Assembly: GCA_944332475.1 (NCBI GenBank) | Contig: CALVKA010000003.1 | Span: 163,257 to 227,256 of the forward strand | DNA: 64,000 nt | From: an uncultured Bacilli bacterium | GTDB taxonomy: Bacteria > Bacillota_I > Bacilli_A > RF39 > UBA660 | Reading direction: 5' to 3' | Shown: positions 4,807-6,006 of the stretch, piece by piece | How positions within the stretch are numbered: the stretch's first letter is position 1 | How the letters are laid out: each line of letters starts with the position of its first letter | Translations under genes and position numbers: made by a program | Notes under the pieces: model-generated | What the model saw: only the letters and a program-made list of their open reading frames with translations | Told to the model about the DNA's origin: nothing | The model's database searches: none

Positions 4807-6006
4807 TTATTGCTTGTCTGTCTGTCTGTCTGTCTGTCTGTCTGTCTGTAAAATTATCTCATTGGTGTCGGCAAAGGTCAATAGCATATCGCGATAATAT
4901 TCATATTGTTGTTGTCTTAATTCTTTTTCTGCAGGAAGTCCTATTCCGAAATCATAACATATAGTATCAAATTTATCCAATACTTCAACTATTCTGTTTT
5001 GTATTTCTATTGGTGGAACAGATATTGTAAATTCTTTCATCCACGTTGAATTCAAATTGGCCTTTGGTGAATTTTGTGTTTTTGCTTTTACTTGTTCCTT
5101 AAATAAATTACTAGTCATCCAATATTTTAAATACTTATTTGATATAACATTGCTGTCTTTTATTCTAGCGAATCCAACACTCACAAAAATACATATTGGC
5201 TCATCTAAATTATATATAACTGGATGGCCCAAGTTTGAACCAACTCTCACAAATAAAATATCGCCTTTTTTTGGCTTTGCATTTGACGTACAAGTATTAA
5301 ATTCTTCTTCTGAAATATATTTTACATTGCTCAAATCCAAATAGTCTTTTGAAATATTAATAGAAGATAAAAACTTTATGCCAGAGGAAACATAATTGGG
5401 TGTATATGTTAATCCTAAGTATAAATCGGCAATATCTTTTAGTTTGTATTTTTTGTATGTTTTAGGTTGTAATAATTTTCCACGCCAAAACTCGTATTGA
5501 CTCTGTCTCGCTTCTAGCTCCGCTTCTAGCTCCGCTTCTAGCTCGCCAAATTTATCTAGTATTCTAACTATTTCTTCTTGTACTTCTAAAGGAGGAATGG
5601 GAATTTTTATTCTATTAAAATCATTTATAGATAGAAAAGGTTGACTTCCTTTTACATATTGTTCTAAATGTAAAGTTGTCAATAAATGATATAAATATCG
5701 AGAATTTAAGTTGTTGTTCTTTGGTTTACATATTGTTCCGTTATAAGTTACATAATGCTTTCCCTGACCCCAAATTACTTTACCGGCTGAACCTATATGC
5801 CCTACAATTGGAGTGTTTTCATTATTATATGTAGACGTATTTCCTACAATTCCATAGCAACCATAAACGGGATATTGACCGCCATCTGTTGGAATGCTAT
5901 TTCCTTTACCATAGTATAAATCGGTTACATCTTTAATTTCTTTATATTCAACTCCATTGGGACATAATTCTTTTATTAAATCTTTTATTCTACTCATGAT
6001 AATCAA
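4807..6006 (-). CDS. hsdS: Type I R-M specificity subunit HsdS (two TRDs, central and C-terminal conserved regions)
   Basis: Central region contains [13 protein letters not shown]. C-terminal conserved block [19 protein letters not shown]. Overlaps hsdM stop by 17 nt; ends in the SSR-encoded TDRQ repeats. Confidence 0.85.
   Translation of the reverse strand: [399 protein letters not shown]
4815..4846. repeat. (TGTC)8 tetranucleotide simple-sequence repeat, (GACA)8 on the coding strand, at the 3' end of hsdS
   Basis: Eight perfect TGTC units read directly at 4815-4846; encodes the [12 protein letters not shown] tail of HsdS. Confidence 0.95.
5509..5544. repeat. 12-bp direct repeat x3 (cgcttctagctc) encoding ELEA x3 in the hsdS central conserved region
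   Basis: Three perfect tandem copies read at 5509-5520, 5521-5532 and 5533-5544. Confidence 0.9.

Follow-up and report, generated by a model that had tools for sequence, protein, structure and literature searches.

A perfect 12-bp tetrapeptide repeat in the HsdS central helix of an uncultured gut bacterium: a probable slow spacer-length dial beside a fast (GACA)n switch

At the start of the window, i.e., the whole 64-kb stretch of DNA analysed here, lies an hsd locus whose genes are all on the minus strand, in the order Fic gene, CBS gene, hsdM, hsdS, (GACA)8, TRD3 ORF, PrrC, 148-aa ORF and hsdR (Table 1). The hsdS gene begins with an ATG at 5997, sharing 8 nt with the end of hsdM, and stops at 4807-4809, just past the (GACA)8 SSR; the 195-aa ORF encoding a third TRD (DNA-reading domain) sits downstream of that SSR, and the PrrC homologue is placed between hsdS and hsdR.

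Table 1. Features of the hsd locus and its surroundings in the 64-kb window, with the basis of each assignment
Feature	Position	Strand	Basis
hsdR, 5' part, ~896 codons; runs off window start	1..2688	-	Translation
148-aa ORF	2685..3131	-	End overlaps hsdR start
PrrC-like anticodon nuclease gene (predicted)	3124..4221	-	PADLOC PrrC 1e-83; Pfam AAA_13
Half-hsdS (195-aa ORF): third TRD plus its own conserved helix of distal type	4202..4789	-	Pfam Methylase_S 1.8e-17; PADLOC Specificity_I 2.5e-59
hsdS, 396 aa, two TRDs, 8-GACA state	4807..5997	-	ORF list; Pfam Methylase_S, two matched stretches; gene also called in L002
(GACA)8 SSR, 3' end of hsdS	4815..4846	-	Tandem Repeats Finder
Distal conserved helices of HsdS, residues 330-372, 17-residue linker, no repeats	4882..5010	-	AlphaFold2 model; EcoR124II alignment
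Central conserved helix of HsdS, residues 137-176, carrying the repeat	5470..5589	-	AlphaFold2 model; ungapped alignment to 7bst_A; Foldseek
12-bp x3 array, GAGCTAGAAGCG, ELEA x3	5509..5544	-	Tandem Repeats Finder, sequence, translation; identical in L001-L006
hsdM, type IC, 522 aa from ATG	5990..7558	-	Pfam N6_Mtase, HsdM_N; EcoR124II M protein match
CBS-domain gene	7593-8279	-	Directly upstream of hsdM with the Fic gene
Fic/DOC-domain gene	8309-9139	-	PADLOC candidate PDC-S72, 6e-81
cotJB/cotJC-like pair	10211-11312	+	CotJB and Mn_catalase Pfam matches on L001 equivalents

HsdM aligns with the EcoR124II M protein over residues 6-517 of 522 (617 bits, E 2.4e-184), the full-length HsdR of the same locus on two other contigs (L001 and L007; 1022 aa in L007) has HSDR_N, ResIII, T1R_D3-like and EcoR124_C Pfam matches, and HsdS matches EcoR124II HsdS (7bst_A; phmmer 1.3e-31) with both conserved regions covered. 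From the HsdM match, the EcoR124_C domain of HsdR and the HsdS match, the locus is, as judged by sequence, of type IC (EcoR124/EcoPrrI-like) with the composition hsdM-hsdS-prrC-hsdR. HsdS itself shows the tetra-amino-acid repeat expected of type IC (ELEA x3 at residues 152-163 of the 396-aa protein) and two TRDs with central and distal conserved regions homologous to those of EcoR124 HsdS, the classical definition of the type IC family being genetic complementation or antibody cross-reaction with its members. The closest HsdM (90% identity) belongs to a Candidatus Coprovivens MAG and the next closest to MAGs labelled Bacilli or Bacillales.

Two observations concern the surroundings of the locus. 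The Fic and CBS genes are conserved alongside hsdM in related contigs, and may form a defence-island neighbourhood. The cotJB/cotJC-like pair adjoins the hsd locus, and the presence of CotJB and Mn_catalase genes there hints at a spore-forming Bacillota host.

Within hsdS, positions 5509-5544 consist of three perfect head-to-tail copies of CGCTTCTAGCTC (Tandem Repeats Finder: period 12, 3.0 copies, 100% matches, score 72), and a direct reading of the window letters agrees, with 36 of 36 bases periodic. The three perfect 12-bp copies encoding ELEA x3 that an earlier note on this DNA had described are thus confirmed. On the minus (coding) strand the array reads GAG CTA GAA GCG three times (unit GAGCTAGAAGCG, product ELEA x3), and in the window interval 5450-5600 its 36 bases lie between the flanks GATAAATTTGGC and AGACAGAGTCAATA. 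Chance is a very poor explanation for the array: base composition predicts about 2e-8 arrays of this kind in 64 kb of DNA, none of 200 first-order Markov simulations yielded a comparable one, and the only other perfect tandem array (at least three copies, period 7-30) in the 64-kb window is the (GACA)n tract. Given the peptide, the probability that all three ELEA units are codon-identical is 0.015 under the codon usage of the window, where two of the codons involved are rare (GCG makes up 3.8% of the codons for Ala, GAG 11% of those for Glu), and the GC content of the unit is 58% as against 30% for the window. Whole units could be gained or lost by replication slippage or unequal crossing-over, given that the DNA of the three copies is identical. 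A single-strand hairpin favouring slippage was sought at the array and none was found (minimum free energy -4 kcal/mol, z = +1.0), and the plus-strand ORF list near the repeat holds only a 95-aa ORF at 5057-5344, short of the repeat.

A collapsed or expanded repeat produced by assembly or sequencing was also considered, and rejected as hardly conceivable. A sequencing read is longer than the 36-bp array, the reading frame and the length rule of the family are both respected, and the array is found unchanged in six assemblies with names from two series; its presence in six independent metagenome assemblies of the lineage indicates that it is no assembly artefact.

The exact 12-mer GAGCTAGAAGCG recurs in at least 120 metagenome contigs, in some of them with GC-rich flanks (e.g., L017 and L096). 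This suggests that the unit, which is rich in GC and in rare codons here, is a horizontally shared conserved-region cassette.

An AlphaFold2 model of HsdS (mean pLDDT 89.7, built from 67 sequences) places residues 152-163 mid-way in one continuous 40-residue helix (137-176), with distal helices at 330-348 and 353-372. Among solved HsdS structures, Foldseek gives the model its best TM-score with EcoR124 HsdS (7bst_A; 0.76, rmsd 3.5 Å), and the ELEA units fall on the TAEL repeats in an ungapped alignment with EcoR124II HsdS (7bst_A), in which the distal region is gap-free too. The linker from LDKF to RxxQY comprises 13 residues in the window HsdS, the same number as in three-repeat EcoR124II, and the distal linker has 17 residues in 42 of 42 homologues matched by regex. 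Both the modelled helix and the ungapped EcoR124II alignment agree with the earlier placement of the repeat inside the central conserved region between the TRDs. In solved HsdS structures, the long central helix and a distal conserved helix form an antiparallel coiled coil that holds the TRDs apart; in the model, the central helix would be the first of the two helices separating the TRDs, with the distal helices as its expected partner.

In such an architecture, the number of four-residue units would determine the length of the central helix, and hence how far apart the two DNA-reading domains lie and how they are rotated; this would in turn set the length of the non-specific spacer in the bipartite target. 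Judging from EcoR124I/II and NgoAV, each extra unit would add roughly one turn to the central helix and 1 bp to the spacer. By analogy, we infer that copy number sets spacer length in the window enzyme as well. With three units and both conserved regions aligned to EcoR124II without gaps, the enzyme should have the 'N7-type' geometry of EcoR124II and EcoDXXI.

The dependence of spacer length on repeat number has been textbook knowledge since 1989, and engineered EcoDXXI hybrids are a further known case. EcoR124I has two copies of the 12-bp TAEL repeat (target GAAN6RTCG) and EcoR124II has three (GAAN7RTCG), the change in copy number arises by unequal crossing-over, and three repeats are the apparent optimum (PMC3874165); the 1-bp difference in spacer between two and three copies that the earlier note had given for this pair is therefore correct (N6 versus N7). 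In NgoAV of N. gonorrhoeae, LEAT repeats number from 0 to 3 among 25 strains, with a change from GACN6TGC to GACN7TGC, and their number combines with a poly-G frameshift (PMC6789123). More generally, type IC HsdS subunits are described as marked by TAEL, LEAT, SEAL or TSEL repeats (PMC10030836). Extended hsdS genes with three TRDs toggled by an SSR are known from Mannheimia haemolytica (G[n]) and Fusobacterium nucleatum (AAGAC[n]) (Atack et al. 2020; PMC7383803).

The window locus resembles each of these systems in part. With EcoR124I/II it shares a 12-bp repeat coding for a tetrapeptide in the central helix of HsdS, together with the similarity of HsdM, HsdR and HsdS, but the repeat is ELEA instead of TAEL (E in place of T) and has another DNA unit, and its host is a Bacillota-like organism of the gut, low in GC and uncultured. 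Like NgoAV, it is a type IC hsdS that combines a tetrapeptide repeat with a downstream frameshifting simple repeat changing TRD use; however, the NgoAV frameshift truncates HsdS to a half subunit whereas that of the window decides the fusion of a third TRD, and repeat number varies among strains in NgoAV while the ELEA repeat is constant among the available strains of the window lineage. EcoPrrI is also of type IC, has three repeats and carries a PrrC homologue between hsdS and hsdR; the window locus adds the half-hsdS (TRD3) and the 148-aa ORF, and its anticodon nuclease is putative. Finally, the extended hsdS genes of Mannheimia and Fusobacterium have an SSR-toggled third TRD as here, where both states occur in natural sequences, although their tracts are G[n] and AAGAC[n] in place of GACA; this last comparison bears on the SSR and not on the 12-bp repeat.

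Sequences of the window lineage were collected as contigs with exact HsdM and PrrC matches, from assemblies named BRZ_ and ONAT22-1 plus one Logan contig. The six contigs covering the repeat (L001-L006) are 99.58-99.97% identical to the window over 4.3-13 kb (0-40 mismatches; 99.6-100% over the hsd locus), and the 12-bp array has three copies in all seven sequences, the window included, as seen in consensus assemblies where a minority at or below the percent level is invisible. In contrast, the GACA tract varies: 8 units are present in the window and L002, and 9 in L001, L003, L004, L005 and L006. According to the gene calls, 8 units give the 396-aa HsdS and a separate 195-aa TRD3 ORF, while 9 units fuse hsdS to TRD3 in a 599-aa HsdS with three TRDs. 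Between the window and L001, the tract is the sole difference, with 0 mismatches over 13 kb; this comparison identifies natural phase variation of the (GACA)n tract, which changes faster than point mutations accumulate, since its length differs at 0 SNPs. Variation in length within a clone, by which a phase-variable contingency locus is recognised, is thus seen at the GACA tract and not at the 12-bp array. In homologues 590-614 aa long, the junction equivalent to the GACA tract is occupied by TDRQ, SKQA or TERNG repeats.

These data also bear on the possibility that the array is itself a fast phase-variable switch, operating at contingency-locus rates and, with GACA, multiplying TRD choice by spacer length. 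Three copies in 7/7 lineage sequences over 0-40 SNPs, with GACA already altered at 0 SNPs, argue against such rates, as do the missing slippage-favouring hairpin (z = +1.0) and the length of the unit, which is divisible by three and cannot toggle expression on and off (the criterion of PMC7383803). On the other side stand the identity of the three units despite their rare codons and the N. gonorrhoeae strains, which vary in both repeat number and poly-G tract. The earlier proposal of two independent slippage-prone devices at this locus is accordingly, as far as the 12-bp repeat would rank equal to the SSR, not borne out by the available sequences of the lineage, where GACA is the one of the two that differs.

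Among homologues, the picture is one of limited variation in whole units. The best 120 protein matches to HsdS are at most 66% identical overall, since the TRDs differ; of the 118 in which the linker from LDxF to RxxQY could be matched by regex, 80 have 13 residues, 31 have 17 and 6 have 9, the remaining one being a spurious 35-residue linker. A species-level sample was built via HsdM, with one genome per species over many phyla, and in 66 of its 80 loci units were counted: two, three and four units are present in 2, 42 and 22 loci, respectively. A metagenome scan requiring two exact copies of GAGCTAGAAGCG, and so biased toward perfect repeats, matched at least 120 contigs, all in the HsdS central conserved region. 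Among the matches listed (at least 120), runs of perfect units number 2 (47 contigs), 3 (53), 4 (19) and 9 (1), and among the loci listed (at least 112), total tetrapeptide units number 2 (2 loci), 3 (59), 4 (49), 5 (1) and 10 (1). Across about 300 homologues the linker nearly always has 9, 13 or 17 residues, i.e., two, three or four units, three being the commonest, and linker lengths step by whole four-residue units with the sole exception of a 14-residue linker (L165).

The central-region allele nearest to that of the window (LDKFG...) has two units in L036 and three in L031; a 2-copy sister allele of the window hsdS was not found among the sequences examined. Exact look-ups of the 395- and 599-aa HsdS products in a clustered protein collection gave no match. 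A scan of viral contigs returned only three matches, all HsdS central regions with 3-4 units and unrelated TRDs, and a plasmid tblastn returned only relatives below 60% identity, mostly on Escherichia and Klebsiella plasmids. One contig stands apart: L019 (Ga0126331_1000102, 1451-1558) carries a half-size hsdS with one TRD and 10 ELEA units, 9 of them perfect 12-mers, far beyond the usual 2-4. A short way past the conserved region its ORF ends in an SKQA-like tail, which, from the sequence, suggests a frameshifted SSR.

The variation in copy number that the earlier note had proposed to survey is therefore present across relatives, at 2-4 units and rarely more, and is not seen among the seven sequences of the window lineage. 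That note had also held that a fixed copy number, with the same three repeats conserved in homologous HsdS proteins, would speak against a switch: the count is fixed in the lineage and three is the conserved mode of the family, but it is not invariant across the family.

The species-level sample was selected for no particular unit. There, neighbouring units of one gene share their codon at 490 of 543 same-residue positions (90%), versus 43% expected from the codon usage of each locus, and 22 of 66 arrays are perfect throughout. The units vary between genes (e.g., GAGCTAGAAGCG, GAGCTTACAGCA, GAGTTGGAAGCA and GAATTAGAGGCA), with a mean difference of 1.22 of 12 bases within genes as opposed to 3.26 of 12 between genes, and divergence is 6.5-7.4% for units at the edges of the array versus 2.6% for those in the middle. 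Units that are alike within a gene and unlike between genes, with edges more diverged than the middle, are the sequence signature of concerted evolution, here through repeated gain and loss of units, the mutational mechanism of which we infer to be slippage or unequal crossing-over.

Natural alleles point in the same direction. Pairs were compared over flanks of 480 nt upstream and up to 600 nt downstream, covering most of TRD1 and TRD2. Three independent pairs with 98.8-100% identical flanks, from relatives that carry the 12-mer GAGCTAGAAGCG, differ in copy number: L053 (5) and L078 (3), L065 (4) and L025 with L062 (3), and L021 (4) and L047 (3). Such pairs, all from other lineages, are what would be expected if the array were a fast switch, but the 7/7 pairs with 100% identical flanks have equal counts, and copy-number differences in other lineages are confined to flanks that diverge by about 0.5-1%; counts are also equal in four further comparisons whose flanks are 95.8-99.8% identical. 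Some of the near-identical pairs with unequal copies could reflect recombination with the conserved region of another allele in place of slippage in situ. Taken together with its constancy beside a changing GACA tract, a fast switch in the array is very unlikely.

At the opposite extreme, the array might be a purely structural, frozen feature whose DNA identity reflects recent acquisition of a cassette and in which copy-number change has no role. The prevalence of three units, about 64-68% in two samples not selected for the 12-mer, is compatible with this, as are their description as an apparent optimum (PMC3874165), the fixation of the window lineage at three, and the sharing of the GC-rich rare-codon unit with at least 120 further metagenome contigs, as horizontal spread could produce. 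Yet about one third of homologues have two or four units in genes that are otherwise intact, and units are homogenised within genes over many phyla with different codons, which requires repeated unit turnover. Moreover, near-identical alleles differ by one or two units, and in EcoR124 and NgoAV copy number has been shown experimentally to alter specificity. A frozen array is on these grounds unlikely.

The array is most readily understood, and with good probability, as the tetrapeptide repeat of a type IC HsdS (ELEA corresponding to TAEL) that acts as a slowly changing spacer-length dial, the fast switch of the locus being (GACA)n. Units are gained and lost repeatedly over the time in which strains and species diverge, with common counts of 2-4 and three the most frequent. 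TRD2 and TRD3 are each followed by a 17-residue distal-type linker, and the ELEA helix would therefore be expected to serve as partner whether HsdS has two TRDs or three; from this architecture, a change in ELEA copy number would affect the specificities of both TRD2 and TRD3. A variant that we regard as quite improbable is that the array slips at a low but biologically relevant rate and that the ELEA helix, as shared partner for TRD2 and TRD3, generates a combinatorial methylome. If so, one unit change would shift the spacers of both specificities, giving two TRD choices times two or three lengths. The perfect unit, GC-rich and with rare codons, may also be kept because it is mutable.

The phenomenon as such is already known from EcoR124I/II and NgoAV, and the ELEA repeat locus raises no new question; what is new here is the ELEA variant, its occurrence in an uncultured gut bacterium and its setting in a prr-like locus, for which the N7-type geometry is a testable prediction about the window enzyme. 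The EcoR124-style spacer-length repeat is widespread well beyond the few enterobacterial and neisserial systems studied so far: in metagenomes and over many phyla it comes nearly always in 2-4 units, evolves in concert and is found in near-identical natural pairs that differ in copy number. For the window locus, the findings also tell apart a slow device, the 12-bp repeat, and a fast one, the GACA tract that fuses a third TRD.
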